Below, piece after piece: positions 11,162-29,334 of a stretch of 64,000 nt of DNA; position 1 is the stretch's first letter, and every line of letters starts with the position of its first letter. The stretch covers positions 90,857-154,856 of the forward strand of contig DATDOV010000100.1 in assembly GCA_035293105.1 (NCBI GenBank), read 5' to 3'. The notes below the pieces were generated by a model, which saw nothing but the letters and a program-made list of their open reading frames with translations, ran no database searches and was not told the DNA's origin. Both the position numbers and the translations under genes were made by a program. This DNA comes from Blastocatellia bacterium. Its GTDB lineage: Bacteria > Acidobacteriota > Blastocatellia > UBA7656.

Positions 11162-11343
11162 AACGCGATCAACATTATTGGCGAGGATTGCGTGGAACAT
11201 GATGGAGCGCGCCAAAGCCGTGACTTTCACCGGGAAGTAGCCGTCAGGCTACTTGCGCGGATTCATACTATGGGCTTGGTGCGTCGGGGCAATTCGAGCA
11301 TCTGGAATTCAGTTACTAACCCTGGATCTCGCTTGCCGGCGTG

Positions 11344-11421
11344 GCAATGAGCACCCACGCGCCCGCGAGTCACTGACAGCCGTGATGGCTGTCATAGATT
11401 CCATCAAAGCCAAATCTCTAG
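11344..11421. repeat. direct repeat, copy 2 (~78 bp) downstream of TPR gene
   Basis: Matches 8544-8618. It lies in the convergent intergenic region between the TPR gene and the STAND NTPase gene. Confidence 0.6.
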
Positions 11422-11504
11422 CACGACCGAGGCTGAGCTGCTAGTTCTTTCGGGCACGTGACTGGCAGGGGAGCAGCCGAAAGCGGACTGACGAACCGTC
11501 AGTC

Positions 11505-14359: not shown

Positions 14360-14538
14360 CGTAGTCCGCTCCTTCGTGACGGTCAGGTGACTTGCAATGA
14401 GATTTATGATTGCGCGGCGGATATCGACAGGGGTTACATCCGCGTCGTGGCTAATCCTACTACAAAAAGCAGCGTGACTGATAGTAGGGAGGAGGTGGCC
14501 GTCAAAAGGGACTCTGGGAATCGAGAGGTCCGGAGGAG

Positions 14539-16230
14539 TCAACGCTTCGCCCGCAGGACAACCACTTTGTCTTCGCCTTCCTTGACCTCGAAGTCTATGC
14601 GGTCGTACTCGCCCTTCTGCCTCCAACCGGTGACGCTGTATCGCCCGGGAGTAAAGGGGTACTTTTCGTTCGAGTTCCTGAAGATTCTCTCATTGCCGTT
14701 GGCTGTGCTGGCGAAGCACCGATCGGGTTTATCCGGCGTGCCATCGGCCTTCTGATAGACGAAGGTCACGTGGCCGACCGGAACCGTGATGTCGAAGTGC
14801 TGCTGCTTCTGGTCGGTCACCACGATCCCGGTCTTGACGTACGGTGTCAGAGCGTTGGGCAAACGCACATCGTAGACGCCGGGAAGCACAGTCTCGCCCA
14901 GCGTCATGTGCACGCGGTACCTCTTCTCGCCGTTTTGCCATAGCTCGTAGTTCTCGCGAAACCATATTCCCGAGCCCGACGCCACCATCTTCACCGTCAC
15001 CCGAACCGTGTGGGCCATGCCGAAGACGATTTCTTTGCGTTCTCCGGCGGCGATTGTTGCCGTCGTCGAGAGATCATTCGCAGCGTTAGGCCGCGCGCGA
15101 AACTCGTAGGCGCCTTCATCGACGAAGACCTCATCAAAATAGCGGAAACTGAAGACCTCTTTGCCGTCTTGAAAAGCATGGACCAGCGAGCCGCGCTGAT
15201 CCTCGCCCTGGTCGGTGAATCGCGCTCTCACGGTTGGCGGCGTGGGGACCTCGACCTTGACCACAGTCGCGCCGGTATCCGCGACTTGGACGCTCTTGGT
15301 CACGGGCCTGTACATATTGCCGTTAGCCGTCGGAACCCCGGCCGTCAGCGTGTACTGGCCGGCCTCGACGCGGCCGGCGCTGCTGCTTGTAACTTTGTAA
15401 AGGTCCCGGCCCTCGCGCGAGAGAACGCCGACGACTCTTATGCGGCTCCCCGCTGCGTCGACGCCCTGTAACCAGAATCCCGCGAGGGCTGCTTGCGCTT
15501 GCTTATGGATCTTCCCCATTTCATCAGCCAGCGTTAAAGCCGACTGGGCATCGTGATACTGGGTGCCTGCTGCGTTGGAGATGCACTCGAGGGTCTGTCG
15601 CTCTTTTTCGCCGAGTCCGAAGCCGACGACGTGAACCTTGATCTTCACGTTTTTGTTTTTCCACTCGCGGACCAGCGCGCACGGGTCGGCTTCGCAAGAC
15701 TCGATGCCGTCGCTGATGAGGATAATCTCGCCGGGCCGGTCGCCGAAATCTTTGAGGGCCTCAGCGAGGCTGTACGTTATCGGCGTTCTGCCAATCGCGT
15801 TTATTCGCTTGATCGACTCCTTGAACTGAGCGACGACTTTTTCGGGAGGGCCGAAGGGAATTAGAAGCTCAGAATCCGCGCAATCCTCTTTTCTCCGGTG
15901 GCCGTAGACTCGAAGCGCGAGGTCGTAACCGGGAAAATCCTTGGCGACGAAATCCTGGAGTACCTGTTTGGCCGCATCGATCCGGCGCGACTTGTCGGGC
16001 AAACGCGCCATCATCGAGCCCGACGCGTCGAAGATGATATAGATGCCGGCCGCTTTGTTTTCCTGCTGGGCAGCTTGAGCCGCAGAGTCGGGTGAGGGGG
16101 CATCATCGCTGCGCTTCTCAACTACCGGTGTAACCACCGCCGGGTTGTTGCCCGCGTCGCCTGACGGCGGAGCGGTGGAGCAACCGGCGATGGCGCATAC
16201 GACCGCGATGTAAATCAGTTCAATCTTCAT
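14539..16230 (-). CDS. von Willebrand factor A (vWA) domain lipoprotein with C-terminal beta-rich domains
   Basis: Lipoprotein signal MKIELIYIAVVCAIAGCS. vWA MIDAS-type start IYIIFDASGSM...LISDGIESCEADPC...VHVVGFGL. Confidence 0.7.
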   Translation of the reverse strand: MKIELIYIAVVCAIAGCSTAPPSGDAGNNPAVVTPVVEKRSDDAPSPDSAAQAAQQENKAAGIYIIFDASGSMMARLPDKSRRIDAAKQVLQDFVAKDFPGYDLALRVYGHRRKEDCADSELLIPFGPPEKVVAQFKESIKRINAIGRTPITYSLAEALKDFGDRPGEIILISDGIESCEADPCALVREWKNKNVKIKVHVVGFGLGEKERQTLECISNAAGTQYHDAQSALTLADEMGKIHKQAQAALAGFWLQGVDAAGSRIRVVGVLSREGRDLYKVTSSSAGRVEAGQYTLTAGVPTANGNMYRPVTKSVQVADTGATVVKVEVPTPPTVRARFTDQGEDQRGSLVHAFQDGKEVFSFRYFDEVFVDEGAYEFRARPNAANDLSTTATIAAGERKEIVFGMAHTVRVTVKMVASGSGIWFRENYELWQNGEKRYRVHMTLGETVLPGVYDVRLPNALTPYVKTGIVVTDQKQQHFDITVPVGHVTFVYQKADGTPDKPDRCFASTANGNERIFRNSNEKYPFTPGRYSVTGWRQKGEYDRIDFEVKEGEDKVVVLRAKR

Positions 16231-16355
16231 CGGACCCTCTGTTCGCTTGTCTTCCTTCGCAGTGGTTCGTCTCCGAATCAGTAGGCGCGACAACTTGGTG
16301 GATAAAAGCCAGTGTGAATAAACCGTAGTCGCGGCGCCGGCAAGCCCGCCGGGAA

Positions 16356-16958
16356 TCAGAATGACACCTGGATGCGTATCTCTATCTTGACGCTGCCGGA
16401 GCCATGCTTCCCGTAGTCATCGGCGGCCTTGCGGTTCATCTCAACGCCCAGCTTGATCTTGTAGTTGGCCCCGACCTTCCACTCGCCCAGATCGGCTTTG
16501 GCCCTATTGAGAAACTTCCGGGCCTTGTCGTTCTTGTCTCTCTCGTCTCTGGCGGGCGGGTCCTGCAGGCTGATCGAATCGAGCTGCTTTTCCAGGTCGT
16601 CGAGTTTCTTCTTAAGCACGTCTGCCTTAGCTTTCAAGCTCCGCATGCAGCCGACGAAGGTCTCAGCCACCAATCGATATGCCTTGGCCCAGTCGTCCCA
16701 CTCTTCTTTCGGCGCGCCGTCCGCCGGACGATTCGCCTTCGCAAACTGTTGGAAGGTGTCAAAATTCAACGAGCACTGTTCAAGCTGGTTCAGCGTCTGA
16801 TTATAAGCGGCCACCGTCGCATCGTAGGTTTCTTCGACCGACTGTTCCCGGCCGAACGCAGACGCGGGAAACGCGAGCGCGACGACAATCGCCGCGAGCA
16901 CTACGACCGCCGTATAGCGAGCGCCCCTTCTGTCACCGTCGGTCAACACGCTTCTCAT
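16356..16958 (-). CDS. small secreted coiled-coil protein (hypothetical)
   Basis: Signal peptide MRSVL...AFPASAFG. EEWDDWAKAYRLVAETFVGC motif shared with 18797..19285. Confidence 0.45.
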   Translation of the reverse strand: MRSVLTDGDRRGARYTAVVVLAAIVVALAFPASAFGREQSVEETYDATVAAYNQTLNQLEQCSLNFDTFQQFAKANRPADGAPKEEWDDWAKAYRLVAETFVGCMRSLKAKADVLKKKLDDLEKQLDSISLQDPPARDERDKNDKARKFLNRAKADLGEWKVGANYKIKLGVEMNRKAADDYGKHGSGSVKIEIRIQVSF

Positions 16959-16988
16959 GATGCCCTCCTTCCATCCAATCATCCGTGG

Positions 16989-17690
16989 TCAGTCTTTGTT
17001 TCCTCGCTTCAGCCCTTCCAACGCCTTTTTTACATCCGCGCCTTCCGTGATTGTCACATCTGACGGGATTGCGAACTTATCGGCGGGAATCGAGGCGTCC
17101 GCGTCGAATCTCGTAGCCGTACTCGTGATCTCCATCCCGGCCATCTTCGTTTGCACCTTCAAGGTCACAGAGTTCCAGACCCAGCTCTTGCTGCCGAGGT
17201 TTTTCACCTCCCAGACGTCGCACATCTTGCCGGCTACCTCTTCAGAGCCGGTCTTCACTCCTCCCATGTCTCTCATCATCTTTTCGCCAAGCTCGGCCAG
17301 GTCTTTCGTACCGGCACGGTCGGTGATCTGTTTGAACAAGGGGTTCTGTGTTTTCGCGCCGGTCCTTTTGTCGAGGTCGATCGCGTAAATCCACTCGCCG
17401 TCCAACAACGTCAGCCTGTTGGATCTCTGAGTCATTCCTGCGACGGTTAATTCGCTCCTGGTGTACTTTGCTTCGCGCATTCCCCATCGGTCGAAGTACA
17501 CGGTTTCGGCGCCCTTCTGCGCGCCGCTCATCGTGTACTCAACGATGCCGGACTCTATCTGATATCGCTTAAAGCCGGCGTCCTTCATTCCCTCGCTCTT
17601 CATCTCGCCGCTGCTTGTGCCACTCGGTTTACTGCATGCGCTTGCGAGCGACACTAGCAACAGAAGGGCAAACAGGCTCCACGTTTTCAT
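16989..17690 (-). CDS. hypothetical lipoprotein
   Basis: MKTWSLFALLLLVSLASACS lipobox. ATG at 17690. Confidence 0.5.
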   Translation of the reverse strand: MKTWSLFALLLLVSLASACSKPSGTSSGEMKSEGMKDAGFKRYQIESGIVEYTMSGAQKGAETVYFDRWGMREAKYTRSELTVAGMTQRSNRLTLLDGEWIYAIDLDKRTGAKTQNPLFKQITDRAGTKDLAELGEKMMRDMGGVKTGSEEVAGKMCDVWEVKNLGSKSWVWNSVTLKVQTKMAGMEITSTATRFDADASIPADKFAIPSDVTITEGADVKKALEGLKRGNKD

Positions 17691-17730
17691 GAAAACTCTC
17701 CTCCGTGACTGGTTTGAATGAACCGGTGGA

Positions 17731-18768
17731 TCAAGGCTTCTGCGGCTGTCCTCTGAACCGCACCAGGTGGTTTCTGGCAAGGCCGCTGCCCGAAGTTATT
17801 TCCGCGACTGAGTACTTCTCTTCAACAGTGGTTACCCTGAGCGTGCCGACCTTTCGATCCGGCGTGCCGAGCGTCTTTCCGGTCTCAGGATCCACGAGGG
17901 GCGGCTGCTGATGATAGACGTCAAACTCCATTCCAGGGCGAATGCCTTGTTCCGATCCGGCGTTGATGTAGACAAGCCCCTCGCGCACGTCGATGACGCG
18001 TCCCGACCACGGGACCGCCTTCATTCCCGAGACGATCGCCGCCACGGCGTTTTCGATTGCCTCGCGCGAGGCGTGGCCGAGCGGCGTGTTCTTGAAGCCC
18101 GACACGCTGAACTCCTGATCGCGGCGTGTAAGCTCCGCGCTGGCGCCCGTCATCGACGCCTTCCCCTCCGCGCGTTGTGAGAAGATCACTTCGCTGGTTA
18201 CCGCGTCGACGAGCCGGATGTCGAGGGCCACCATCGCCGTCACCCGGTCCGATTTCGCCTTCAGTATCTTTATCGGTTTGAAAGTGCCGCCGATCGATGT
18301 CTGGTTGTAGGCGAACTCCGTTATGTCACCGGTGATGAGGGTCTGCGCCCCGATGACGCGGCCACTGGCGGCTGCCGTTTCCTTGTTGACCCGCCCCGAA
18401 GCGCCGAAGTCCTGCTCGCCGGTTACGTCCTTGATGGATGCGCGCTCGACGACGATGAACCGGCCCGTCTTCACCAACTCGGTCGTGAGCATCTCGGTGA
18501 GCCCAAGCGCAAATTCAGCCGGGGGGGGAAGCGCGATGGTCGTGCTGCGAGAATCACGGTCCTCTTTGACATACTCCCTGAAGGCGGTGCCCGAGATGCT
18601 CATTACCGCGATGCGCAGCTTCGGGCCGGTCCAGGGCGGCTGTACTTCCTTCTGCCCGAATGTCGCCGGCGGAAGAAACGCCAGTAGACAAAGGGTCGCC
18701 GTGGCACAGGCCATAAGCTGAAAGTTGCCGGTACGGTCGATTCCTGACCTGTCGAGCATTCGATTCAC
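17731..18768 (-). CDS. CsgG-like (curli-secretion-channel family) lipoprotein with extra C-terminal domain
   Basis: LTEMLTTELVKTGRFIVVERASIKDV...ASGRVIGAQTLITGDITEF...VALDIRLVDAVTSEVIFS matches the CsgG-family core pattern. Signal peptide present. Confidence 0.55.
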   Translation of the reverse strand: MNRMLDRSGIDRTGNFQLMACATATLCLLAFLPPATFGQKEVQPPWTGPKLRIAVMSISGTAFREYVKEDRDSRSTTIALPPPAEFALGLTEMLTTELVKTGRFIVVERASIKDVTGEQDFGASGRVNKETAAASGRVIGAQTLITGDITEFAYNQTSIGGTFKPIKILKAKSDRVTAMVALDIRLVDAVTSEVIFSQRAEGKASMTGASAELTRRDQEFSVSGFKNTPLGHASREAIENAVAAIVSGMKAVPWSGRVIDVREGLVYINAGSEQGIRPGMEFDVYHQQPPLVDPETGKTLGTPDRKVGTLRVTTVEEKYSVAEITSGSGLARNHLVRFRGQPQKP

Positions 18769-18796
18769 TCTTTCCTCCTAAGCGGCTCTCGGACGC

Positions 18797-19285
18797 TCAC
18801 TTCTTCTTCCTGGCTCGAAGCCGGTCGAGCCTGGCTCTAAGCTGCTTTATTATCGGAGGCTGCTGGTCAATTCGCTTCTGCTGGTCGAGAAGCTTTTGTC
18901 TCATTCTCGCCATCGCCTCGTCCTCTCTTTCACCCACCGCGATGTTGGGAAGCCTCGACAGGAGTTCGGCGACTCTCTTCTTCAAAGCGCCGATTGCGCT
19001 TTCCAGATTGGCGACACACTTCTCAGCTTCGTCAACCTTCTGCTTGTATTTCTCCCACTCTTCATCCGGCGCATCCTCAGCAGGCACCGCGATCAATTGA
19101 ATGCTCGCGTCGCAGAGTTCCACACCGTAACGAAAGCCGAGTATTTGCTGCTCGAGCCTTTCAATCTCCTTGGCAATATCGCCCTGAGCGGCGAAAGAGC
19201 GAGGCGGGAGCACTAGTACACACGTCAGCGCAAGTCCGACAATCAGGGTCTCAAGCGTTCTCGTTCTCATCATTCTCTCCTTCAT
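18797..19285 (-). CDS. small secreted coiled-coil protein, paralog of 16356..16958
   Basis: Signal peptide. DEEWEKYKQKVDEAEKC... aligns with EEWDDWAKAYRLVAETFVGC of the other gene. Confidence 0.45.
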   Translation of the reverse strand: MKERMMRTRTLETLIVGLALTCVLVLPPRSFAAQGDIAKEIERLEQQILGFRYGVELCDASIQLIAVPAEDAPDEEWEKYKQKVDEAEKCVANLESAIGALKKRVAELLSRLPNIAVGEREDEAMARMRQKLLDQQKRIDQQPPIIKQLRARLDRLRARKKK

Positions 19286-19323
19286 TGAAATCTGCGAATA
19301 GCAGGTTGTTCAATGCTTCGATC

Positions 19324-19731
19324 TCATTCTTCCTCCTGGATGATGATCTTGGGCGTTACCAAGAGGACCAGGCATTTGCTTCTGGTTTCAGAGTTTCCCT
19401 TGTTGAAAAAGATCCTCTGGATATAAGGAATCTTGTCGCAGACTATCTCGACATCGTGCTTGCCTCCCAGAGGCTTTCCGGTGCCGGGATGCCGGACATT
19501 GATGGCTCGGAACAGAAACACCTTGTTGTGCTCGGTTATGGTATAGCCGTTCACGCGCGCGTCGTTTGTCAGGTCGACGGTCTTTCCCTTCTCCTCTCTC
19601 TGCGCAGCCGGTCCGGCGACGTGGGCAGCGGCCGTCCAGGTAGCCACAGAGAAGACCATCAAAGACGCGATTGCGATTAAACAACTCGATGCTCGAAAAA
19701 CGGCGTTTGCCGTCTTGCTACTATTTTTCAT
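19324..19731 (-). CDS. small exported protein with secretin-like C-terminal motif
   Basis: Signal anchor. C-terminal DKIPYIQRIFFNKGNSETRSKCLVLLVTPKII resembles the secretin C-domain signature (PvLgdiPvlGwLFrs....tELlifiTPrIv). Confidence 0.45.
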   Translation of the reverse strand: MKNSSKTANAVFRASSCLIAIASLMVFSVATWTAAAHVAGPAAQREEKGKTVDLTNDARVNGYTITEHNKVFLFRAINVRHPGTGKPLGGKHDVEIVCDKIPYIQRIFFNKGNSETRSKCLVLLVTPKIIIQEEE

Positions 19732-19996
19732 CTCATTCTCCTTACTCAGAGCCAAACGCCCAAAAGCCGTCTTTCCGCATCAGGATGGTTCGCCCGCTGA
19801 AAGCTACAAGAACAGCAGCGAGCGCAGTCGGCTGGGCTTCGCAAGCGTTTCACTGCGTTTCATCGAGTTGGGGACTCAACTGGCGCTCAACGTCAGCTTC
19901 GCCTTGAATGCCCCATCCTTCGTCGCATCAAGCGTGACCACAACTTTGCCTTTGCCCACGCCGCGAGTCTCACCACCGACCACAGGCAATGATGCC

Positions 19997-20398
19997 TTAA
20001 CAGTCCCCCCGCTTCTGTTCCAGTTTCAGGTTTACCTTGTACGTGCCCTCGTGTCTGGTAGACAGCGTGACCTCTACCTTGTCACCCTTTTTCAGGGCCG
20101 GACTAAAAGTTATGGTTGGCCTGGTGCTGTCATTCGTACCAGCCTTAACTGTGTAGGCGGTGGTCAATTGACCATTGATCTTAACTTCCAAGACCGTCAT
20201 CCCACCCGTGTCCACGCCACTTGGCTTCGATATTTTTCCGCAGTTAGTGCCGTCTGCGGCGGCCGTGGCCGAAGCCGTGGCCGTGCCCGAAGCAAAAGCT
20301 TCCTTCACCCCGAGGGCCAGAACGACGACGCCGACCATCAACAACGCGCCCATGGATCTTCGAGTGCTCACCGAACTACTCTTGATTGTTCGTTTCAT
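19997..20398 (-). CDS. small secreted protein (hypothetical)
   Basis: Start MKRTIKSS at 20398, with RBS AAGGAGA 7 nt upstream. Signal peptide present. Confidence 0.5.
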   Translation of the reverse strand: MKRTIKSSSVSTRRSMGALLMVGVVVLALGVKEAFASGTATASATAAADGTNCGKISKPSGVDTGGMTVLEVKINGQLTTAYTVKAGTNDSTRPTITFSPALKKGDKVEVTLSTRHEGTYKVNLKLEQKRGDC

Positions 20399-20552
20399 AC
20401 TGATTCTCCTTATCGACAGTTTTGCCGGAAAGACGCGCGACGGCCCTTTCTGCTTTACAGCCATCGCTTCGCCTTCGGTAGTCCAAAGTTTGGCCGAACT
20501 AACTTCAACCCCAAGCCGGCCTCGTCAAAAGCCGGCCAGTATAGCTGCACGC

Positions 20553-20640
20553 ATTTACCTTCAACAGACATTTTTGATGTTTGATGCCTGGCTGAACAGA
20601 TCATTTCTCGCCCTCAGGGAATCGGGATGACGGTGCTCAA
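20553..20640 (-). promoter_or_regulatory. conserved ~88-nt upstream element, copy A
   Basis: ~70% identical to 22733-22820. On the minus strand it ends in AAAATGTCTGTTGAAGGTAAA. It lies 155-240 nt upstream of the 19997..20398 start. Confidence 0.5.
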
Positions 20641-20662
20641 CGCGTCAAGCCACAATGAACAA

Positions 20663-22126
20663 TCACCTTCGCGGTGGATGAACCACTTCATACGAGATCG
20701 AAAAGGCGCCGGCGCTCAGGCCCCTGAGGTTCACTGGGATGCTCCCATTAGGGTCTCTTACGGTCAGCACTGCCTCGTCACCGGCGGTTCTCGCGCCGGC
20801 GACGTTCATGGTGACCACTCCGGGCGTGTTGTTCTTAAAGCGAATCTCTGAACCACGTCGCAACGATTGGTACTGTGCGGTAGCGGTTAGTTGTTCGCCG
20901 CGGCGAATCGTCGTCCGGGGCGCGCTCACCTCGAAGCTGAAGACGTTTGTCTCAAAGCTCTTGCTCTCACCATAGGGGTTGCGAACCCACGCTTCCTGCG
21001 GGCCGAGTTTGGGCGTATCCACGTAAGCGGTCACCTGGTTCACAGAGGAAGCCAGCGTCTCCTGAATCTGATTACCGACGACCACGTCGCATTGCCTGCC
21101 AAGACTGCTGCCAGGAATCGTGACCACGTCGCCTCGGCGGAGATCGGTAGGAATGTCATTGATGATTGGCCGGCTGACAACATCCGGCGCCGGTCCAGGC
21201 AGCACGCGGGTCTGAGTGCGCGCTATCTCTTTGCCGGTGGAATCGAACACTCGCACAATTGCCGTGGTAGCCGTCGTCAGCCTGGCCACGGAGTCGGGAA
21301 GCGAAAGTAATGCGCCGCCACGCTGATCAGTTTTAGCCTCGGCGGTTTGTCCGGCTACTTCCGTAGTTACGACGCAGCCCTCAAGCGTGCGCGGGCCGCG
21401 AACCGTCGTGGTTGCGACTTCGTCAGCGTAAACCTCTCCCGACACGAAGATCGCCGGCTGGCCGATCAAAGCAGTTTTCGAGTTTTCTGCCGGCGGCAGC
21501 AAGACCAGAGTGTAGTCACCTTTGTCGATCTTCTTCTTGTTTGCCTCGTTGAGTTGGTCGTACCACTCCTGGCGCCGCTTCTTGAGCTCGTCGATCTCGC
21601 CTTTGGATAGTCCGGTCGTTTCGGCGTTCTTGATCTCGAGGTCGTAGGCTTCGATTTCGTTGATAGCGGCCCCTTTGTCGTCGGTGTACCATTTGCCGTC
21701 GGCGGCTTGCGCGCCGTGGCCGCCGATCTCGTGGATCTTCGTGGACGCAAGCCAGCCGATTGAAGGGGTTTTGCCATCAGTCGGATCAAAGAAGGCCGGT
21801 TCACCTATGGTCGTCTTGACCTTCTTCTTGTCGTCGCCCGCGCGTACCGTCTCGCCTTCTCCTTCTACGTCCGGATCGTAAGATGGCTCTTCGCTGAGAT
21901 TGCCCGATGGGATCTTGTAATGCTTGTCCGTCAACTGGATGAGCTTGTTCTTGGCGTCCTTTATCTTGGCGGCGTCACCGTCCTTGAGGGCTTTCTGAAC
22001 TTCGTCCATCGCCTGCTGGAGTTCTTTCATTTGCTCCGCGCTCGGTTTGACTTGCGCGGACGCACCAAACGCCACTGCCAGCGACAGCCCTACGACAGCG
22101 AATAACTTCAAGGCAACTCTTAACAT
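20663..22126 (-). CDS. secreted protein, 487 aa (hypothetical, beta-rich C-terminal half)
   Basis: Signal peptide MLRVALKLFAVVGLSLAVAFGASAQ. No recognisable catalytic motif. Confidence 0.5.
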   Translation of the reverse strand: MLRVALKLFAVVGLSLAVAFGASAQVKPSAEQMKELQQAMDEVQKALKDGDAAKIKDAKNKLIQLTDKHYKIPSGNLSEEPSYDPDVEGEGETVRAGDDKKKVKTTIGEPAFFDPTDGKTPSIGWLASTKIHEIGGHGAQAADGKWYTDDKGAAINEIEAYDLEIKNAETTGLSKGEIDELKKRRQEWYDQLNEANKKKIDKGDYTLVLLPPAENSKTALIGQPAIFVSGEVYADEVATTTVRGPRTLEGCVVTTEVAGQTAEAKTDQRGGALLSLPDSVARLTTATTAIVRVFDSTGKEIARTQTRVLPGPAPDVVSRPIINDIPTDLRRGDVVTIPGSSLGRQCDVVVGNQIQETLASSVNQVTAYVDTPKLGPQEAWVRNPYGESKSFETNVFSFEVSAPRTTIRRGEQLTATAQYQSLRRGSEIRFKNNTPGVVTMNVAGARTAGDEAVLTVRDPNGSIPVNLRGLSAGAFSISYEVVHPPRR

Positions 22127-22145
22127 TGCTGGGCCTCCTTTGTTC

Positions 22146-22640
22146 TCACTTGATGGAGAACTTCACAGGGGTTGACTTCAATCGCCCCTTCCACGCCGGC
22201 GGCAGTTTCAGCGCGGGCGGCGCGTCCTGTTTGTTCTCGTAGAACGCCGTGACCGTGTACTCGCCCGGCGTTTCGAACGTGTGTGAGCGCGCGAGATTGT
22301 AAAGCCTGCCAAAAATCTGCTTGGTCTCGAGGGTCATGAACTCGCGGCTTTCGAAGCTCTCTCGGATGCGCGCTTCGAAAGGGACCAGCTTGCCGTCAGG
22401 CCCGGTTATCTGGAAGAAGATCTCATGCGGGCCGATCGGACGATTCACCAATAGTCGTCGGTTGATGACAACGTCGGTCGGGCTGAGGTTCTCAATCAAG
22501 ACCCGAGCGATGATCGGCTCGCCTGCGCTGTACTGAGTCTCTTCGAGTTGAAGCGTCAGGCGGAGTTCGGGCGCTCTTGCTTGAAAAGAACTTCCGGCCA
22601 CGCTTGCCGCAAGAAACGCTATGGAGATCAAAGCTTTCAT
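22146..22640 (-). CDS. secreted protein, 164 aa (hypothetical)
   Basis: Signal peptide MKALISIAFLAASVAGSSFQA. Confidence 0.5.
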   Translation of the reverse strand: MKALISIAFLAASVAGSSFQARAPELRLTLQLEETQYSAGEPIIARVLIENLSPTDVVINRRLLVNRPIGPHEIFFQITGPDGKLVPFEARIRESFESREFMTLETKQIFGRLYNLARSHTFETPGEYTVTAFYENKQDAPPALKLPPAWKGRLKSTPVKFSIK

Positions 22641-22732
22641 TTGGACCTACTTTCCACCTCATCCGACGAGGTTTGATGCGACGCCGCGGAGTAGCGGACC
22701 GTCATCGCCACGACCAGCCGGAAAACTCCGCT

Positions 22733-22820
22733 GTTTATCTTCAACAGACATTTTCTCTGTTTGGGCCTCGGCGCAAACGGATTCTTTCTCACCTCAGGGA
22801 ACGACAATGACCGTGCTCAC
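22733..22820 (-). promoter_or_regulatory. conserved ~88-nt upstream element, copy B
   Basis: Aligns with copy A, including AAAATGTCTGTTGAAGATAAA and TGAGCACGGTCAT...TTCCCTGAGG. It lies 95-180 nt upstream of the 22146..22640 start. Confidence 0.5.
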
Positions 22821-23150
22821 GTAAGGCCCACCCGCCGTTTGCGTGAGCTTGGCGTTTCCCCTGTAGATCGTCTTCGAGCTTCCGGAGCCCACCTCAGCCC
22901 TGGCGATCGCCCTGCACCTGGTTGTATCAATCGCGCCGCAAGCGGCACGGATGACGAGGGTCACGTATCCGCGGCCGTCTGTTCGTCCGCTGACCGACCC
23001 CGTTTTGCAATCGCAGCCGTCCCCGTCCACGCTCACCTGAACCGTCGTGCCTTCGGGCAGCGCTGAATTGCCCGCCTTAATCCTAACCGTCGCATCTCCA
23101 CCTTCGATAAACAGACCCACGACGATCAGGCATATGAGCGCCAGCTTCAT
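22794..23150 (-). CDS. small secreted Cys-containing protein (hypothetical)
   Basis: Signal peptide MKLALICLIVVGLFIEGGDA. RBS GAGAGGG. Confidence 0.45.
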   Translation of the reverse strand: MKLALICLIVVGLFIEGGDATVRIKAGNSALPEGTTVQVSVDGDGCDCKTGSVSGRTDGRGYVTLVIRAACGAIDTTRCRAIARAEVGSGSSKTIYRGNAKLTQTAGGPYVSTVIVVP

Positions 23151-23204
23151 ATCGCCCTCTCGTCACGTACAACAGACAAATCTGACGACCAGGCCGGGAA
23201 TCGC

Positions 23205-26051
23205 TCACCGGTGATTGCCGGCCAGTACGAACGGCGCCCAGTAACGAGGGTGGGAGAGCTCTCTGCGGTTGCCCGCTTCGACGAACGGAAGCTCGCCTCT
23301 GATCATCGCCCTCTGGGTCTCGGCGAGGGCCTCGCTCGTTTCTTTCGTTTGCAGGTTCTTGTAGAAAGCCTTCATGAACTCGGTCGTTGGCCGGTCGCTG
23401 ACGGGCAGAAGGCTGGCCATCACGCTTCTGGCTCCCGCGTGCAGGAACGCTTCGATCAGTCCGATGCGGTCTGCTTCGGCCAGCTCGTCTCCGGTGGATG
23501 AATAGCTCTGACCGGTTTGGCAGGCCCCGAGCGTCACAAGCTCCGCTTCGAGCCCCAGATCGAGTATTTCGCGGGCCGTCAGGTTGCCATCGTCTTCGAC
23601 TGTGCTCTGGAGCTTCAGCCGGCTCAGCAAGGGCATCTCGGGCTCGGAAACGGCGTGCGTGGCAAGATGAACGTACTTGAAGTGCGGAGCAAGCTGTTTC
23701 AACTCGCTCTCGCTTGCTTCCTGATCGCTGCGCGTGTCGCCCCCGAACATCCCGGCCACGGCGCGAGCTTCTTCAACGGCGAACTCAAGCGGCAGTAGCT
23801 CCGGTTCGTCCGATTCGTTCCTCCCGAAGCTGAGCATTCCGAGCTGCGGTCGAGTTGTTTGTCGCTGAGGTTGACGTGAAACGTTCGCCAGGTAGGTCGC
23901 GGACGGCGTGCGGAATATCGAATAGTCTTCGACCAGAAACCTGATTCCATCTCCTTCTGCCCGAGCCAGCGCAGCAAAGGGAAGATCGTGAAGCGAGCCA
24001 AATGGAACGACTCCCAGCCGGCGAATGCCCGCGAGCGAGCCTGTTCGCTCGATCGGCTCAATCAACGAGCGATGCAGATCTTCGGCAACGGGCTTCCAGT
24101 CAAATCCCCCTCGATCATCCTGCGAACCATCGAATATCAGCGAGCGGAATAGCTTCACCTTGGACGACAGGTTGGTCCTGGTGACCGGTAAAGCTACGCT
24201 TGCACAAGTCGATCGAGTGATGACAAGCGCGAAGACCTTCTCGCCCGCGAACACGTATTCGACCAGCGCGGTGTCGGGGCTCAAAGCGCTCTGCGCAGCT
24301 TCAAGCTCGACCGGCTGCGCTTCGCGAACAAGCCTGTATCGTGGCTCGTTCAACACCGATCTCAAAGTCTGGTCTTCATAGTCGCTGTAGGCCCGCCGAA
24401 GCCGCGCTCTCATCTCAGCGCTGCCTTCGCCCTTGAAGCTGTTGAAAGCCTTTTCGATCCGCGACAGCGCCTCTTTTTCCTCGCCAGCAGGCCGCGCGTT
24501 GGATTTCTTCTCGCTCAGTTGCAGCACGAGATTTCTGAATGAGCTGTATCTCAACTGTTCAAGGAAGCGAAAGGCCAACTCCAGCTCCGGGCCGTTTCCT
24601 CCCCGGCCAAGCAAGAGTTCGAAGGTGCGGTCATACAACATTCTGCTCTGGCCCGAGACGAGTATCGTCCCGCTCGATCGAAACCGCTCCGATTGCATCT
24701 CTGCTGCTTCGGCCAGATAACTCAGAGCCTCGGTGCGCCGGCCCTGAAGCTCCATGAACTCGGCCATCAACAAACTGTGGCCAAGCGAGCGATCAGCGGC
24801 CTCCTCTTTCGCTCTGATGGTTTCGGCTTGGTCGAACAGCTCGCCCGCCTTCGGCATGTTGCCAAGCTGCATATACGCTTCCCCCAGGAACATCGTCGTC
24901 GTTCCGGTCGATCTGATGTCGGGATCGCCTATCAACCGCTCCAGCTCGAGCACCTTCTCAAAGTACTGGCGGGCAGTTTCAGCGTCCCCTTTGAGCAAGT
25001 GGCAATACGCCAGGCCGCCCAGGTACCGCTTGGCGTGAAATGGATTCTCGCGCTCTCGCTCGAGCACGCGATTGAGCAATCCGATAACCCGGTCGTACTC
25101 ACCCAGGCGCGTGTAGATGCTCGCCAGCACGTCTTCTTCTTTGGGGCCCAGGCCGTATCCGATTTGCCGGCTGATCTCGACGCTCTTCAAGTAGTATTCA
25201 CGCGCTTTTCTGTAATTGCCCATCCCCTCATACGAGCTGCCGAGGAAAAAGTAGGAATCGCAAAGCCCCGCCTTGTCGCCGACACGGAGCTTAAGCTCGA
25301 CGCTTTCATTCTGATATTTGAAGAACTGAAACAAGTCGCCTTTCAGCGAATGAACCAGCGCGATGTTGCAAAGCGTGATTGCGGCGCTGCGCCACTCGCC
25401 CAGCCGTCTGTATATCTCAAGCGCGGGATCGTAGTAGTCGGCAAGCGGGCGGTCGAGTTCACCCTTGAACCACCAGTAGACGACTCCGATATTGCGAAGC
25501 GCGTCAGCCTCGATGATCTCGTCGCCGGTTTCGCGTCCGATTACGAGCGCCTCCCCGAGGTGCTCGAGCGCCTTGTCCGACTTGCCTTTGAGGTGATAGA
25601 GCACGCGGCTCAGATCGATCAGCGCGTGGCCTTCAATCCGCTGGTCTCCGATCTCTCTCGCGAGTTCCAGGCTCTGGATGTGACGTTGAACGGCCGCATC
25701 GGCTTCGTTGGAATTAAAATGGTTGACTCCCGCGGCGTTGAGCACGCGAGCGCGCAGCCGCGCGTCGAGCGGCTCGTCGATCAGGCGGTGAATCTCCTGT
25801 TGAGACGCGGTGAATTCGCCGCGAAGCTGGTGGCACAGGGCTATCTCAAACCGCACGTCCGCGGCGCGCGGGTCGAGCATTAGCGCCCATCGCAGTCTCT
25901 CAAGGGCATCGTCGAGCCGCCACTCACGTTTGGCTTCGATGGCCTGAGCGAAGAGGTAGCTCGCGACGGGCTTGCGCATGAGGACCCCGGCTGCCGACAG
26001 GGTCACCGTTGCCGCGATGATTATGAGCCACCTGCGGATTCTTGAACTCAC
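23205..26051 (-). CDS. CHAT-domain (caspase-like) protein with N-terminal TPR array
   Basis: C-terminal HLATHAVSE...LVTLGACQTGQS supplies the His/Cys dyad of the CHAT peptidase fold. Many TPR-like repeats in the N-terminal ~600 aa. GTG start. Confidence 0.75.
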   Translation of the reverse strand: MSSRIRRWLIIIAATVTLSAAGVLMRKPVASYLFAQAIEAKREWRLDDALERLRWALMLDPRAADVRFEIALCHQLRGEFTASQQEIHRLIDEPLDARLRARVLNAAGVNHFNSNEADAAVQRHIQSLELAREIGDQRIEGHALIDLSRVLYHLKGKSDKALEHLGEALVIGRETGDEIIEADALRNIGVVYWWFKGELDRPLADYYDPALEIYRRLGEWRSAAITLCNIALVHSLKGDLFQFFKYQNESVELKLRVGDKAGLCDSYFFLGSSYEGMGNYRKAREYYLKSVEISRQIGYGLGPKEEDVLASIYTRLGEYDRVIGLLNRVLERERENPFHAKRYLGGLAYCHLLKGDAETARQYFEKVLELERLIGDPDIRSTGTTTMFLGEAYMQLGNMPKAGELFDQAETIRAKEEAADRSLGHSLLMAEFMELQGRRTEALSYLAEAAEMQSERFRSSGTILVSGQSRMLYDRTFELLLGRGGNGPELELAFRFLEQLRYSSFRNLVLQLSEKKSNARPAGEEKEALSRIEKAFNSFKGEGSAEMRARLRRAYSDYEDQTLRSVLNEPRYRLVREAQPVELEAAQSALSPDTALVEYVFAGEKVFALVITRSTCASVALPVTRTNLSSKVKLFRSLIFDGSQDDRGGFDWKPVAEDLHRSLIEPIERTGSLAGIRRLGVVPFGSLHDLPFAALARAEGDGIRFLVEDYSIFRTPSATYLANVSRQPQRQTTRPQLGMLSFGRNESDEPELLPLEFAVEEARAVAGMFGGDTRSDQEASESELKQLAPHFKYVHLATHAVSEPEMPLLSRLKLQSTVEDDGNLTAREILDLGLEAELVTLGACQTGQSYSSTGDELAEADRIGLIEAFLHAGARSVMASLLPVSDRPTTEFMKAFYKNLQTKETSEALAETQRAMIRGELPFVEAGNRRELSHPRYWAPFVLAGNHR

Positions 26052-26100
26052 ACTTTGAGTCAGGCGTTCAGAGTACCGGCTTCAGCCGGGCAGTTTCGTC

Positions 26101-26757
26101 TCACCGCTCGAATGAGAACTTGGATATCAGCGAAACGACCGCAACACCGTCGGGCGATTTGGCGGTCACGTACCAGAAGTAGCTCTTCCCGCTCTCGAAC
26201 CGCCCCGCCGCATTCATAACCGCGCGTTCCTCGATCGCAGTAACACTGACGAGGACATCGCCCTTTTCGTTCAACAGAGTAAGCGAATAACTCTCCGCGC
26301 CCTGGACCTTCGCCCAACGGAACTCAATAAGATCGGACGACAGTCTGGCCCCGGTGACAGGAGCCAGCAATTTGGGCGCGGTCGAGATTTGCTCTTCCTG
26401 GCGCAGGCGATCATTCGGAAGGCGTTCGGATGGGCCGATGAGAAGAACCGCCGACAGCCCTATCGCGAGTAGCACCGCCGCGGCGGCTCCCGCATACCGC
26501 ATCCGCGCGCCGAATACGAAAGACGGTCTCTTGATTCTCCCGCCCGGCGACATGGATCTAACGCGCGCCTTGAGCCAACGCGGAAGCGGCGCCGCCGCCT
26601 GCTCGGGTCTCGACGCGACGTAACCAATAGCGAGTCCACGGCAGCACGCGCGACAGCGGCCGAGATGAGTCTCGAACCTATCGCGCGCATCGTCGGCCAC
26701 CGATCCCGCAAGGTAGCTATTCATGTCTTCGTTGGTCAAGCAGTCCATCGCTGACAT
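26101..26757 (-). CDS. anti-sigma factor (zf-HC2 type) with TM helix and periplasmic domain
   Basis: N-terminal HLGRCRACCRG zinc-finger anti-sigma motif, a TM segment AAAAVLLAIGLSAVLLIG, and a beta-rich C-terminus. Confidence 0.65.
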   Translation of the reverse strand: MSAMDCLTNEDMNSYLAGSVADDARDRFETHLGRCRACCRGLAIGYVASRPEQAAAPLPRWLKARVRSMSPGGRIKRPSFVFGARMRYAGAAAAVLLAIGLSAVLLIGPSERLPNDRLRQEEQISTAPKLLAPVTGARLSSDLIEFRWAKVQGAESYSLTLLNEKGDVLVSVTAIEERAVMNAAGRFESGKSYFWYVTAKSPDGVAVVSLISKFSFER

Positions 26758-26788
26758 CCCTAAACAATTACAACAGACAAAACAGAGA

Positions 26789-27628
26789 TCACTTCACTGC
26801 GCGCTTCAGCTCTTTCAGCGCGTCCCTGAGCAGAATCTTGATCTCCTTTTCCGTCGCGTGAAGCACGCGGGCCGTATCCTTCAGGCTCAGCCCTTCTTCG
26901 TAGCGAAACTCGACGGCGAGTCGCTGGCGCGCCGTTAGGCACTCCATCGCCCGGTTCATCCGGGCTTCGGCTTCCCGTTCGAGCAACGCCATTTCGGGAT
27001 CGGTTCTGTAGTCGAGGAGCTGAACGGCGAACCCCGTCTCTTCGTCGACTTCATCGATTGAAACTTCACCACGCGCCCGAGCGAGGTTGCCCATCAGCCG
27101 CCAGAGTTTCTTTCGGCTCAAGAGGGAAAAAATGCGCTCGAGAGAATCCAGCACGGAGACGAGGTCGGTGTCGGTGTTGGTTTCCAGGTGCAACTGTTCG
27201 CGGATCGCCGAGGGAGTCAGCCCCTTCCAGAAGTAGAGCTCGAAGATGCGCTGTTCTCGCAGCGGCAGCCGCGTAATAGGCTTGAGCAGCCGTTTTCGTC
27301 CTTCTTCCGACCAGGCCCAGTTGATCGAGAGGTTCCTGACGACTTGAAGCAACCAGGGCGTCAACTCGCCGCTGTTGCCGGCATAACGAACCGATTTCAA
27401 CCTTCGAAAATCCTGCTCCGAGAGCTTTTCGCAGATGTAAACGAACCGGTCCATCGCCCGGTCGTAATCGAAGCCCTGCCGCTGAAGGAACGCGAATATG
27501 ACGTCGGAATAGCGATCTATGAAGACCTCCCACGCGCGCTGCGGGTCGGAGTGAAAGAGCGCGATAAGCTCCGCGTCAGGCGGCGTGGCAGCGACAATCG
27601 CGTCACCAGAGGCCTCGCTTGTCTTCAT
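26789..27628 (-). CDS. sigma-70 family (ECF-like, extended) RNA polymerase sigma factor
   Basis: Region-2-like LTPWLLQVVRNLSINW and region-4 HTH LTARQRLAVEFRYEEGLSLKDTARVLHATEKEIKILLRDALKEL. Confidence 0.65.
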   Translation of the reverse strand: MKTSEASGDAIVAATPPDAELIALFHSDPQRAWEVFIDRYSDVIFAFLQRQGFDYDRAMDRFVYICEKLSEQDFRRLKSVRYAGNSGELTPWLLQVVRNLSINWAWSEEGRKRLLKPITRLPLREQRIFELYFWKGLTPSAIREQLHLETNTDTDLVSVLDSLERIFSLLSRKKLWRLMGNLARARGEVSIDEVDEETGFAVQLLDYRTDPEMALLEREAEARMNRAMECLTARQRLAVEFRYEEGLSLKDTARVLHATEKEIKILLRDALKELKRAVK

Positions 27629-27735
27629 TATCGGCTAAGAATAGTCCGAGCGGCCTCGCCTGTCACCTCCGAACTGGCCGTCGAGCCGATGGCCGCAAGC
27701 GCCCGGCCCCTCAGATAGGTCCGATGTCTGCGGAC

Positions 27736-28212
27736 TCAATCTCCAACTTTTCGGATCCTCTCGATGATCTCAGTTGTCGACGAGCCGGCCACAAAAGGCA
27801 GCGATACCACCGATCCGCCCGCGGCTTCGACTTCATCCCGGCCGACTATCTGCTCAACCGGCCAATCGCCGCCCTTGACCAACACATCAGGTAAGAGCAC
27901 GGCGATCAACTCGCGCGGCGTCTCCTCTTCGAAGATCACGACATAGTCGACGGCTTCGAGCGCCGCTATTACCTCAGCCCGCTCCCGCTCGTTGAGTATC
28001 GGCCGCCCCGCGCCCTTGAGCGAGCGCACAGAGCGGTCACTGTTGAGGGCCACAACCAAGGCATCTCCCAGCGCACGGGCCTGGCAAAGGTAACGCACGT
28101 GGCCGGCGTGCAGCAGGTCAAAGCAGCCATTGGTGAAGACGACGCGTTTGCCTTCAAGGCGCAAACGCCGCCGTTCTTCCTGGAGAGACGCCCTGTCCAG
28201 AATCTTGGTCAT
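27736..28212 (-). CDS. D-beta-D-heptose 1-phosphate adenylyltransferase (RfaE/HldE domain II-type cytidylyltransferase)
   Basis: [36 protein letters not shown] nucleotidyltransferase HxGH motif. 158 aa single domain. Confidence 0.7.
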
Positions 28213-28365
28213 CGCCGATAACCAGTCTTATAGCATACGGCCCCGAGTCTACGCACCAGGGTAGCCGCGCGCAATCGGCGGGTTCCTGAACGAGTCGCCT
28301 CCAGCAGCGTTTGACAGACTCGGAGGAACCTGACAGTTTGCCTCTCGTCCGCGACTCCACGAGTT

Positions 28366-29334
28366 ATGCGATCAACCTTCGCGTCATTCTTCAATACCCG
28401 GCACAAGCTCAGCTTGCTCAACTGGGCGGCGTTTGTAAAAAACCTACGGAGCAGCAAGAATGTCGGCTGGCGCCTGGCACGCATCGGTCTGATGACCTTC
28501 GCCGGCGTCGCGATTCTCATAATGGGATTTGAAGACAGGCTTATTTACTTCCCGTCGAAGTACCCCGAAGGCTTGTGGGATGTCAGTCGGATTCCCCAAG
28601 TAGAAGGTGAGATTGTCCCAAACATCGAGGACTGCTACTTCGTGACGAGCGATGGCGTGAAGCTCCACGGGTGGTTCTGCACTCCTCGCCGGACGGCACG
28701 TGGTTCGCTCGAGCCAATCCCGGCCGACATGGTGCTGTTGTGGTTTCACGGGAACGCCGGCAACGTGACCGACCGCTACGATATGATTCGAGTAATGATG
28801 GGAATCCCGGTGCAGGTGTTCATCGTCGATTATCGCGGCTACGGCAAGAGCGAGGGCAGCCCGTCGGAGCAGGGTCTGTACCTCGACGCGCGCGCGGCCT
28901 GGGATTACCTTGTCTCCGAGCGCGGCGTCCGGCCCGGGAACATCATCATTCTTGGTAAATCACTCGGCGGCGTGCCGGCGATAGACCTTGCGAGTAAGGT
29001 TGACCCCGCCGGGCTGATCGTTCAGTCGAGCTTCACGTCTGCTCACGATATGGCTGCGGCGGTGATGCCGCTGCTGCCGCGCTTTCTGATTCACAGCAGG
29101 ATGGAATCGGTGAAGAAGATCCCGGTGGTGCGCTGTCCGAAGTTGTTCATTCACAGCCCGCGCGACGAAGTCGTGCCGTATGAACTTGGCCGCCGCCTGT
29201 TTGACGCCGCTTCCGAACCGAAACAGTTCTACACCGTCGAAGGCGCAGGTCACAACGAGACTTACTTTGTGGGTGGCAACCGGTATGTCGAAGCGGTTCG
29301 TCAGTTTGTCGAGTCGTGCCGTCCGCCGGAATAG
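28366..29334 (+). CDS. alpha/beta hydrolase (BAAT/Bem46-like)
   Basis: HGNAGN oxyanion region, nucleophile elbow GKSLGG, C-terminal His. N-terminal TM. Start codon uncertain. Confidence 0.6.
   Translation: MRSTFASFFNTRHKLSLLNWAAFVKNLRSSKNVGWRLARIGLMTFAGVAILIMGFEDRLIYFPSKYPEGLWDVSRIPQVEGEIVPNIEDCYFVTSDGVKLHGWFCTPRRTARGSLEPIPADMVLLWFHGNAGNVTDRYDMIRVMMGIPVQVFIVDYRGYGKSEGSPSEQGLYLDARAAWDYLVSERGVRPGNIIILGKSLGGVPAIDLASKVDPAGLIVQSSFTSAHDMAAAVMPLLPRFLIHSRMESVKKIPVVRCPKLFIHSPRDEVVPYELGRRLFDAASEPKQFYTVEGAGHNETYFVGGNRYVEAVRQFVESCRPPE

Follow-up and report, generated by a model that had tools for sequence, protein, structure and literature searches.

Within a 64,000-nucleotide stretch of DNA from a Blastocatellia bacterium (Acidobacteriota; contig DATDOV010000100.1, positions 90,857 to 154,856), hereafter the window, the minus strand carries a gene array that opens with a sigma-70-family factor, an anti-sigma factor and a TPR-CHAT protease. 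These are followed by genes for exported proteins, termed cargo below, namely p118, p164, p487, p133, p135, EEW157, a CsgG-like protein, lipo233, EEW200 and the VWA lipoprotein VWA563. The array is best read, with a probability of roughly 0.55, as a three-gene envelope signalling module together with its regulon, forming a split version of the DdvS/DdvA-type switch.

A reading made from the sequence alone had described a same-strand array at 16356-27628, and this description is borne out: all named open reading frames (ORFs) lie at their positions on the minus strand in the ORF list of the window, and an independent gene call on the identical contig returns the same set of products (948, 118, 164, 487, 133, 135, 157, 345, 233, 200, 563, 293 and 658 aa). 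From 27628 down to 11505 there are only minus-strand genes, and the intergenic gaps in the array measure 19-265 nt. The end of the array at 16356 had to be moved to 14539, because the VWA lipoprotein encoded at 14539-16230 ranks second among the cargo proteins of related loci (8 loci, behind p135 with 9). Terminator-like sites did not exceed shuffled expectation (24 found against 18.5 ± 4.8 expected), nor did the hits of a sigma-70 promoter scan. An Rfam scan of 11000-29000 (E ≤ 1) returned a chance telomerase match as its sole hit, and the motif discussed below has no Rfam family. The three signalling genes are as follows.

26789..27628, minus strand: sigma-70-family factor, 279 aa (Pfam Sigma70_r4, TIGR02937, AlphaFold2, Foldseek)
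26101..26757, minus strand: anti-sigma factor, 218 aa (Pfam zf-HC2, NCBIfam antisigma, alignment of 34 homologs)
23205..26051, minus strand: TPR-CHAT protease, 948 aa, with an N-terminal transmembrane anchor, His799 and Cys844 (Pfam CHAT, TPR)

The sigma factor, anti-sigma factor and TPR-CHAT protease

The sigma-4 domain of the sigma factor is recognised by Pfam (Sigma70_r4, 4e-12; r4_2, 1.4e-12), and the NCBIfam model TIGR02937 scores 70 bits against a cutoff of 43. In an AlphaFold2 model derived from a 24-sequence alignment (predicted local distance difference test score, pLDDT, 72), the protein is laid out as a sigma-2-like helical domain (residues 18-119), a conserved three-helix domain (123-184), a disordered linker (186-209) and sigma-4 (211-278), and Foldseek aligns the model with SigB, sigmaE, FliA and WhiG at E values of 2e-4 to 1e-2. 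Residues 1-115 give no match to Sigma70_r2, even at E = 10; the fold match of the whole factor, together with the match of PF04542 to the relatives P0104 and P0105 (33-34% identical), suggests that the N-terminal part is a divergent sigma-2 domain. The middle segment, in turn, gives a weak match to Sigma70_r4_2 (E = 0.006). Homologs form about 110 clusters and are nearly all about 280 aa long. The factor had been called extracytoplasmic function (ECF)-like from the sequence alone; a plain ECF factor is not supported, given the missing Pfam sigma-2 match and the extra domain at 123-184, which departs from the two-domain layout. Because ECF classification 2.0 excluded factors whose sigma-2 misses the Pfam model (PMC7826278), the family is probably unclassified there and would lie outside the existing ECF classification.

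The anti-sigma factor matches zf-HC2 (4e-4) and contains an HxxxCxxC zinc motif formed by H31, C35 and C38, and it crosses the membrane with a single predicted helix at residues 88-108. Eleven residues past this helix stands Arg119, which is invariant in the 34 anti-sigma sequences from three phyla and is followed by a conserved C-terminal beta domain of about 90 aa with the pattern FxW...Y...GD...YxW.V.A..DG..S..F. Zinc motif, single helix, juxtamembrane Arg and C-terminal domain are all kept across the three phyla.

The TPR-CHAT gene lies 49 nt from the anti-sigma gene, and its product covers the whole Pfam CHAT model (4e-62). The His799/Cys844 dyad is invariant in 30 of 30 homologs, all of which also possess one N-terminal hydrophobic helix with Arg/Lys ahead of it. 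When the PDB was searched with a profile of the CHAT domain, the matches included Craspase Csx29 (3e-13) and a 991-aa "CHAT domain-containing protein", 8rot_B (7.5e-9), whose matched region, 839-950, covers the dyad region. The catalytic dyad of DdvA is H862/C907 (PMC11506125), and 8rot_B is taken here as DdvA, which its chain length and matched region fit. The whole protein retrieved TPR proteins only, Csx29 and 8rot_B surfacing solely with the CHAT-domain profile.

Conservation of the three genes was followed in 29 genome loci and 17 metagenome loci collected through the sigma alignment, plus several obtained by exact protein look-up (individual loci carry L numbers below), and was counted over the 31 non-redundant loci whose sequence continues for 4.2 kb or more beyond the sigma gene. 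In 24 of these 31, CHAT is found directly downstream on the same strand, in the order sigma, anti-sigma, TPR-CHAT. The trio occurs in Acidobacteriota (sigma identity 44-71%) and in Ignavibacteria-type, Melioribacteraceae and Salinivenus metagenome-assembled genomes (MAGs; 27-32%), and the anti-sigma factor and TPR-CHAT are encoded by separate genes in every related locus. The earlier proposal that these three genes belong together is thus upheld by a conserved unit, and the trio very probably constitutes one signalling module.

A separate case is L054 (7780-9935), with CHAT shortened to 414 aa, lipo233 broken into two ORFs, a transposase close by and no sigma gene seen over 10 kb upstream; here the module appears to be decaying, with its cargo retained.

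A shared motif as candidate promoter

The 9-mer TGTCTGTTG has four exact copies in the 64-kb window, all of them on the gene strand and in gaps of the array, and no other exact copy.

26771..26779, minus strand: motif copy 1, TGTCTGTTG, 13 nt before the anti-sigma ATG (25.0 bits)
23170..23178, minus strand: motif copy 2, between CHAT and p118 (20.7 bits)
22742..22750, minus strand: motif copy 3, about 100 nt before p164 (28.9 bits)
20562..20570, minus strand: motif copy 4, about 164 nt before p133 (28.2 bits)

These scores derive from a position weight matrix (PWM) that was built from the other loci with the window left out, and the four sites (20.7-28.9 bits) stand well apart from the next best at 11 bits. 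That fifth-best site, at 5275, was discarded, being antisense within a plus-strand gene.

In most related loci, TGTCTGTTG appears in gene orientation in the gap between the sigma and anti-sigma genes and again just past the CHAT stop codon, and L004, L007 and L009 carry one-mismatch variants (A/CGTCTGTTG) ahead of further cargo units. Across 619 kb of non-redundant loci, the 8-mer GTCTGTTG has 55 gene-strand occurrences against 8 on the opposite strand, about 9.4 copies per strand being expected; its sites fall between the sigma and anti-sigma genes, behind CHAT and ahead of additional cargo units. As a held-out check, L053 and L054, which were retrieved via CsgG and not via sigma, carry the motif at the predicted places. 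In the Ignavibacteria-type loci of distant phyla, TGTCTGTTG is missing and TGTCCGTAT occupies the same two positions, abutting a TATAAT-like hexamer; in these distant-phylum loci (112 kb), GTCCGTAT has 7 gene-strand copies and 0 on the other strand. Because the sequence shifts with the sigma clade while the positions stay, the motif behaves like a cognate promoter, and the 13 to about 165 nt that separate it from the start codons are easier to reconcile with a promoter than with a translation signal. On this comparative evidence, the motif is likely to be the promoter element used by the sigma factor, of an extended -10 type, and an element of that type may suit a sigma factor with an extra DNA-binding-like domain. 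The single co-regulated envelope regulon envisaged by the sequence-only reading accordingly gains in-silico support from a shared, strand-specific motif before four transcription units.

Positional k-mer enrichment around the motif detects an A-tract just upstream and otherwise only weak TCTC at about -19 and TGAA at about -38, with no conserved, fixed -35 element. This lack would suit a different explanation, in which TGTCTGTTG is not the sigma promoter but either the operator of another regulator or an RNA-level signal (a processing or protein-binding site) within a single long transcript originating at the sigma gene. Such a transcript is possible, given the short gaps and a terminator count no higher than chance, and a few motif copies can form a hairpin by pairing with a nearby inverted copy, as in L025 at 9023-9048 (GTCTGTTG-gtagg-CAACAGAC), in the window at 22728-22750 (copy 3, CTGTT-N7-AACAG) and in L037 at 9836-9853. 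Most copies, however, have no hairpin partner, the Rfam scan assigns no family, the spread of start-codon distances tells against it, and an element that changes with the sigma clade at constant positions, abutting a TATAAT-like hexamer in AT-rich phyla, is poorly explained in this way. The operator or RNA-signal explanation is thus considered rather unlikely, and the promoter reading is retained.

The sigma gene itself is preceded by an element of another kind, and in the four closest loci TGTCTGTTG does not occur before it.

27638..27666, minus strand: candidate housekeeping-type promoter of the sigma gene, GTGACA-N17-TATTCT, with a very short leader (consensus scan)

A GTGACA/ATGACA-N17-TATyCT block with an TAGCCGnTAATG start likewise precedes the sigma gene in L004, L007 and L009, and the upstream region at 27629-27666 is devoid of a Shine-Dalgarno sequence. 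A conserved promoter-like block that leads into TAGCCGnTAATG without a Shine-Dalgarno sequence suggests a nearly leaderless sigma mRNA.

Proposed signalling mechanism

At rest, the cytoplasmic zinc finger of the single-pass anti-sigma factor would tether the sigma factor to the membrane, and TPR-CHAT, anchored by its one N-terminal helix, would expose its TPR and caspase-like domains to the periplasm. Upon an envelope signal, TPR-CHAT would cut the periplasmic part of the anti-sigma factor, for which Arg119 is the best candidate site, and the leftover stub would be cleared by general intramembrane and cytoplasmic proteases, so that the sigma factor is freed. A regulated proteolytic switch had been suspected from the sequence alone, and it is best understood through the DdvS/DdvA precedent (PMC11506125) with the dyad intact in all examined homologs; by analogy with that precedent, cleavage of the anti-sigma factor by CHAT is given an even chance.

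The freed sigma factor would then transcribe from promoters with the extended -10-like main element aaaaTGTCTGTTGtAg, which precede anti-sigma and CHAT, p118, p164-p487, and p133. Sigma-driven expression of anti-sigma and CHAT would create a negative feedback loop and the cargo would be induced as well, while the sigma gene would be expressed constitutively from its ordinary promoter. The last unit would be read from p133 through p135, EEW157, CsgG, lipo233 and EEW200, since neither a terminator nor a further motif follows p133; this read-through probably extends to EEW200 and perhaps into the VWA lipoprotein gene. The exported products, drawn from co-occurring families, would assemble at the outer membrane around the CsgG-like channel.

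Besides the missing -35 element, several observations weigh against this reading. The orientation of TPR-CHAT follows from the positive-inside rule alone, and charges occur on both flanks of its helix. When the DNA of the 31 loci was compared, CHAT was upstream or divergent in 3 and was not seen in 4. Moreover, the PWM scan of the window places no motif ahead of p135 or the VWA gene, and the control of both consequently depends on the assumed read-through. Finally, the CHAT domain matches DdvA (7.5e-9) no better than it matches Csx29 (3e-13), which makes the resemblance to DdvA one of architecture and not of close descent.

TPR-CHAT could alternatively spare the anti-sigma factor and act as the first product of the regulon, maturing or degrading exported cargo in the periplasm, with the anti-sigma factor inactivated by other means. 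It is itself a regulon member, lying with anti-sigma downstream of the motif, and the cargo is exported to the very compartment predicted for the protease. The cargo nevertheless varies, whereas the periplasmic domain of the anti-sigma factor and its Arg are conserved along with CHAT over three phyla, and the trio persists where the cargo is wholly different (Reprolysin/FG-GAP in L003; BNR/Sortilin in L028). DdvA, in addition, offers a precedent for action on the anti-sigma factor (PMC11506125). Cargo processing is therefore regarded as unlikely in comparison with cleavage of the anti-sigma factor.

Relation to known systems

In Myxococcus xanthus, DdvA is a transmembrane anti-sigma factor with a periplasmic TPR-CHAT part, and self-cleavage of its juxtamembrane linker has been proposed to precede the action of RseP (PMC11506125, PMC6061681); its partner DdvS is an ECF sigma factor that drives four promoters across its locus (PMC11506125, PMC6061681). 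The array in the window has in common with this pair a zinc-finger cytoplasmic anti-sigma domain, one transmembrane helix, a TPR-CHAT His/Cys dyad (periplasmic in DdvA and predicted to be so here) and several sigma-dependent promoters over the adjacent locus, which are likewise predicted here. The differences are equally distinct. The anti-sigma factor (218 aa) and TPR-CHAT (948 aa, with its own anchor) are two genes here and are fused in DdvA, and any cleavage must take place between two proteins because the genes are separate. CHAT matches the full Pfam model here, whereas three helices are lacking in DdvA; the sigma factor has an extra middle domain and its promoter element is unlike the AAc/cGT type of DdvS. 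The regulon here consists of exported proteins with no PADLOC matches, whereas that of DdvS/DdvA comprises CRISPR-Cas and the cyclic-oligonucleotide-based anti-phage signalling system (CBASS). DdvA-like proteins were found only in Myxococcota and one Comamonas (PMC11506125), in contrast to the Acidobacteriota, Ignavibacteriota-type and Salinivenus MAGs reported here. Since the fusion is missing and the sigma layout, promoter and regulon differ, the system is set apart as a variant of DdvS/DdvA and not a member.

Similarly, in type III-E Craspase, the TPR-CHAT protein Csx29 cleaves Csx30, an inhibitor of CASP-sigma (PMC10028731). The two systems share a TPR-CHAT protease tied to the release of a sigma-70-family factor, and no PDB sequence matches the CHAT domain better than Csx29; Csx29, however, is cytoplasmic, RNA-activated and bound to Cas7-11, whereas the system described here has no CRISPR/cas genes, a membrane-anchored protease and a ZAS transmembrane anti-sigma factor.

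The proposed logic is also the same as in another envelope response. In the SigmaE-RseA-DegS/RseP cascade, a single-pass anti-sigma factor receives a periplasmic first cut, its stub is removed and an envelope regulon is induced (summarised in PMC10028731). The same succession of single-pass anti-sigma factor, periplasmic cut, stub removal and envelope-protein regulon is proposed here, although the role of site-1 protease would fall to a caspase-like cysteine protease bearing TPR sensors instead of a PDZ serine protease, and the promoter is without a recognisable AAC -35 element.

In a full-text search of the open-access literature, CHAT together with sigma/anti-sigma was found only in the DdvS/DdvA and Craspase papers, and an earlier description elsewhere is possible. 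A joint reading may be put forward tentatively, namely an undescribed multi-phylum system that combines a sigma factor with two sigma-4-like domains, an extended -10 promoter (core TGTCnGT) without a fixed -35, a cut in trans by a separate periplasmic TPR-CHAT protease, and a CsgG-centred outer-membrane assembly of VWA, coiled-coil/Ig and p135-type proteins. With the split form, the pairing of a caspase-like protease with an anti-sigma factor would have a far wider distribution, abundant soil Acidobacteriota included. Self-cleavage, as proposed for DdvA, is difficult to demonstrate there because protease and substrate form one chain; two separable proteins render cleavage testable here, and the invariant Arg marks a candidate site. 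The sharply defined motif, moreover, predicts the regulon in any genome that bears the trio, and the pool of about 10 cargo families without known function, including the rare p135 domain, would mark an uncharted envelope structure in poorly cultured phyla.

Exported proteins of the array

The cargo genes of the window are listed in the order of transcription.

22794..23150, minus strand: p118, small secreted Cys-containing beta protein (signal peptide; no family match)
22146..22640, minus strand: p164, secreted protein without a family match (signal peptide)
20663..22126, minus strand: p487, secreted protein with a helical N-terminal part and a C-terminal half resembling the Ig-like middle of fused relatives (signal peptide, relatives)
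19997..20398, minus strand: p133, small secreted beta protein with a Cys close to the N-terminus and another at the C-terminus (gene calls)
19324..19731, minus strand: p135, small exported all-beta protein with a tail like the end of the Secretin model (Pfam, AlphaFold2)
18797..19270, minus strand: EEW157, secreted coiled-coil protein (translation, pairwise comparison)
17731..18768, minus strand: CsgG/HfaB-family protein with an FlgT_C-like C-terminal domain (Pfam CsgG)
16989..17690, minus strand: lipo233, lipoprotein with an invariant Cys19 (alignment; homologs in 7 loci)
16356..16958, minus strand: EEW200, secreted coiled-coil protein (translation, pairwise comparison)
14539..16230, minus strand: VWA563, lipoprotein with an N-terminal VWA domain (Pfam VWA_2)

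Most downstream genes had been taken for signal-peptide proteins without a known domain, and direct reading of the translations agrees, as 9 downstream products have an N-terminus of the signal-peptide or lipoprotein type and most lack a family match. Apart from the sigma factor, anti-sigma factor, TPR-CHAT, CsgG-like and VWA proteins, no array protein gives a clear Pfam or NCBIfam match; lipo233 has no Pfam, NCBIfam or PDB (profile) match, and PDB sequence searches with VWA563 and p487 were likewise without a match. Every cargo product examined across the loci bears an N-terminal export signal, and PADLOC finds no match for the sigma factor, the anti-sigma factor or the cargo.

Among the 45 sigma-anchored loci, which include close relatives of the window, p135 occurs in 9, VWA563 in 8, lipo233 in 6, p118 and p133 in 4 each and CsgG in 3. 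The cargo varies even where the sigma factors are 67-71% identical, yet it is drawn from one pool of CsgG-like, VWA lipoprotein, lipo233, p133, p135, coiled-coil and Ig families. Homologs of p118 follow the trio in L004, L007, L009 and L053; a p164 homolog (60% identical) adjoins a p487 homolog (59%) in L016; p133 homologs are found in L011, L019, L020, L053 and L054; and VWA563 homologs, 52-70% identical, stand at the array ends of L004, L006, L007, L009, L011, L053 and L054. In the window, L011, L042, L053 and L054, one subset recurs jointly in varying order: CsgG along with VWA563, p133-like, EEW-type and lipo233 genes. Other loci encode Reprolysin/FG-GAP (L003), beta-propeller and BNR/Sortilin (L028) proteins, the BNR/Sortilin type having a type IX secretion tail.

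The two EEW proteins had been regarded as paralogs; both are coiled-coil proteins and detectably alike, but the likeness is weak (27% over 81 aa, pairwise E = 4e-5), and each has its own counterparts elsewhere. Those of EEW200 are found in L042 and L054 at 43-48% identity, whereas EEW157 has a separate homolog in L053, and its module reappears as the N-terminus of a fused 592-aa protein in L042. In a single frame, the L042 ORF joins an EEW157-like coiled coil, a segment resembling the C-terminal half of p487, which corresponds to the middle of the fused protein, and a p135 domain; similar fused proteins of 604-626 aa are encoded in L014 and L016, and the fused relatives show weak IPT/TIG matches. 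That EEW157, p487 and p135 match parts of one fused protein elsewhere argues, at the level of sequence, for their working together.

In the gap between p133 and p135, a 35-codon ORF (19876-19983, minus strand) ends in ...GKVVVTLDATKDGAFKAKLTLSAS, which by eye resembles p133-family C-termini (GDKVEVTLSTRHEGTYKVNLKL; ...FTVNLTLSNC). BLASTP yields no alignment between this ORF and the C-terminus of p133, and the ORF may be a remnant of a lost p133 paralog.

The CsgG-like protein matches PF03783 (5.9e-34) over model positions 35-208 of 210, with FlgT_C also matched, and belongs to a subfamily of 433 homolog clusters from Acidobacteriota/Gemmatimonadota. The assignment to the CsgG family made from the sequence alone is sound, but its status as a lipoprotein is unproven: the N-terminus, MLDRSG...LMACATATLCLLAFLPPATFGQ, has a signal peptide and Cys residues, but its hydrophobic core does not end in a canonical L-[AS]-[GA]-C box. 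In common with the curli channel CsgG and with HfaB, the CsgG domain of Pfam is nearly full length; unlike curli and holdfast systems, the array has no CsgA/B/E/F or HfaA/D partners, no clear lipobox and an extra FlgT_C-like domain, and the neighbours are VWA, coiled-coil and small beta proteins.

These features bear directly on the suggestion, also made from the sequence alone, that the genes serve a curli-like or amyloid-type export route with CsgG at its centre. In its favour, the array does contain a CsgG-family protein, which recurs together with VWA563, p133, EEW and lipo233 in L011, L042, L053 and L054. Pfam and NCBIfam searches of the array proteins, however, detect no curlin CsgA/CsgB, CsgE, CsgF or holdfast partner (HfaA/D), the small proteins are not Gln/Asn-rich repeats, and the Cys near each terminus of p133, as a possible disulfide, suits a compact domain over a repeat fibre. 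With CsgG in just 3 of the 45 sigma-anchored loci, a curli-like pathway is very unlikely. The broader proposal of an export or surface assembly of cargo proteins centred on CsgG is also doubtful, albeit considerably less so.

At L055 (6362-16987), a more distant CsgG-like gene (50% identity) lies in another same-strand run, which includes several small proteins without a Pfam match as well as Coa1-like, GH25, OmpA-like and PrsW-protease genes, and which adjoins a divergent ECF sigma gene and a Ser/Thr kinase-TPR gene. CsgG-like genes may commonly reside in sigma-controlled envelope arrays in the phyla considered here.

The p135 family is rare, with 62 representatives among 1.84 billion proteins in a full HMMER profile search, which was needed for this number because a word-indexed search gave just 7. 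The AlphaFold2 model of p135 is all-beta, with pLDDT above 90 at residues 50-120, and its Foldseek comparison with the PDB gives no fold match and no secretin (best E 0.065). The tail aligns only with positions ~127-168 of the ~169 positions of PF00263, at E = 0.034 in the window and 1e-5 to 4e-11 in relatives, and no complete secretin domain occurs among the examined members of the 62. The mini-protein with a secretin-like C-terminus that had been noted in the sequence thus reduces to a short model tail, and a true secretin is not supported.

The secretin-aligned segment has another appearance in some members of the family (P0120, P0130, P0150, P0163 and P0166), where it is an ABC-ATPase signature followed by Walker B and D-loop; in P0120, a signal peptide, Walker A and three copies of the p135 beta domain are present as well. 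Judged by these motifs, the relatives of p135 look like an exported family built on remnants of ABC ATPases.

Neighbouring genes

Directly after the array, at 11505-14359 on the minus strand, a SIR2_2 gene and an nSTAND1 NTPase gene with a long coiled-coil tail overlap by 4 nt and form a candidate two-gene phage-defence pair. The module might be imagined to control an anti-phage island with this pair as its true output, as SIR2 matches ThsA-type SIR2 models of PADLOC (9e-22), the nSTAND1 gene stands next to it on the same strand, and DdvS/DdvA regulates CBASS and CRISPR-Cas (PMC11506125). The pair is nonetheless found in none of the related loci, no motif copy lies ahead of it, and the conserved cargo draws no PADLOC match. 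It was rejected as a part of the system, being neither conserved with the module nor preceded by the motif, and a defence output is the least probable of the explanations weighed here, far below the envelope regulon preferred above. Convergent with the nSTAND1 gene, a plus-strand gene at 8681-11161 encodes an 826-aa secreted protein with central TPR repeats and N- and C-terminal regions without a Pfam match.

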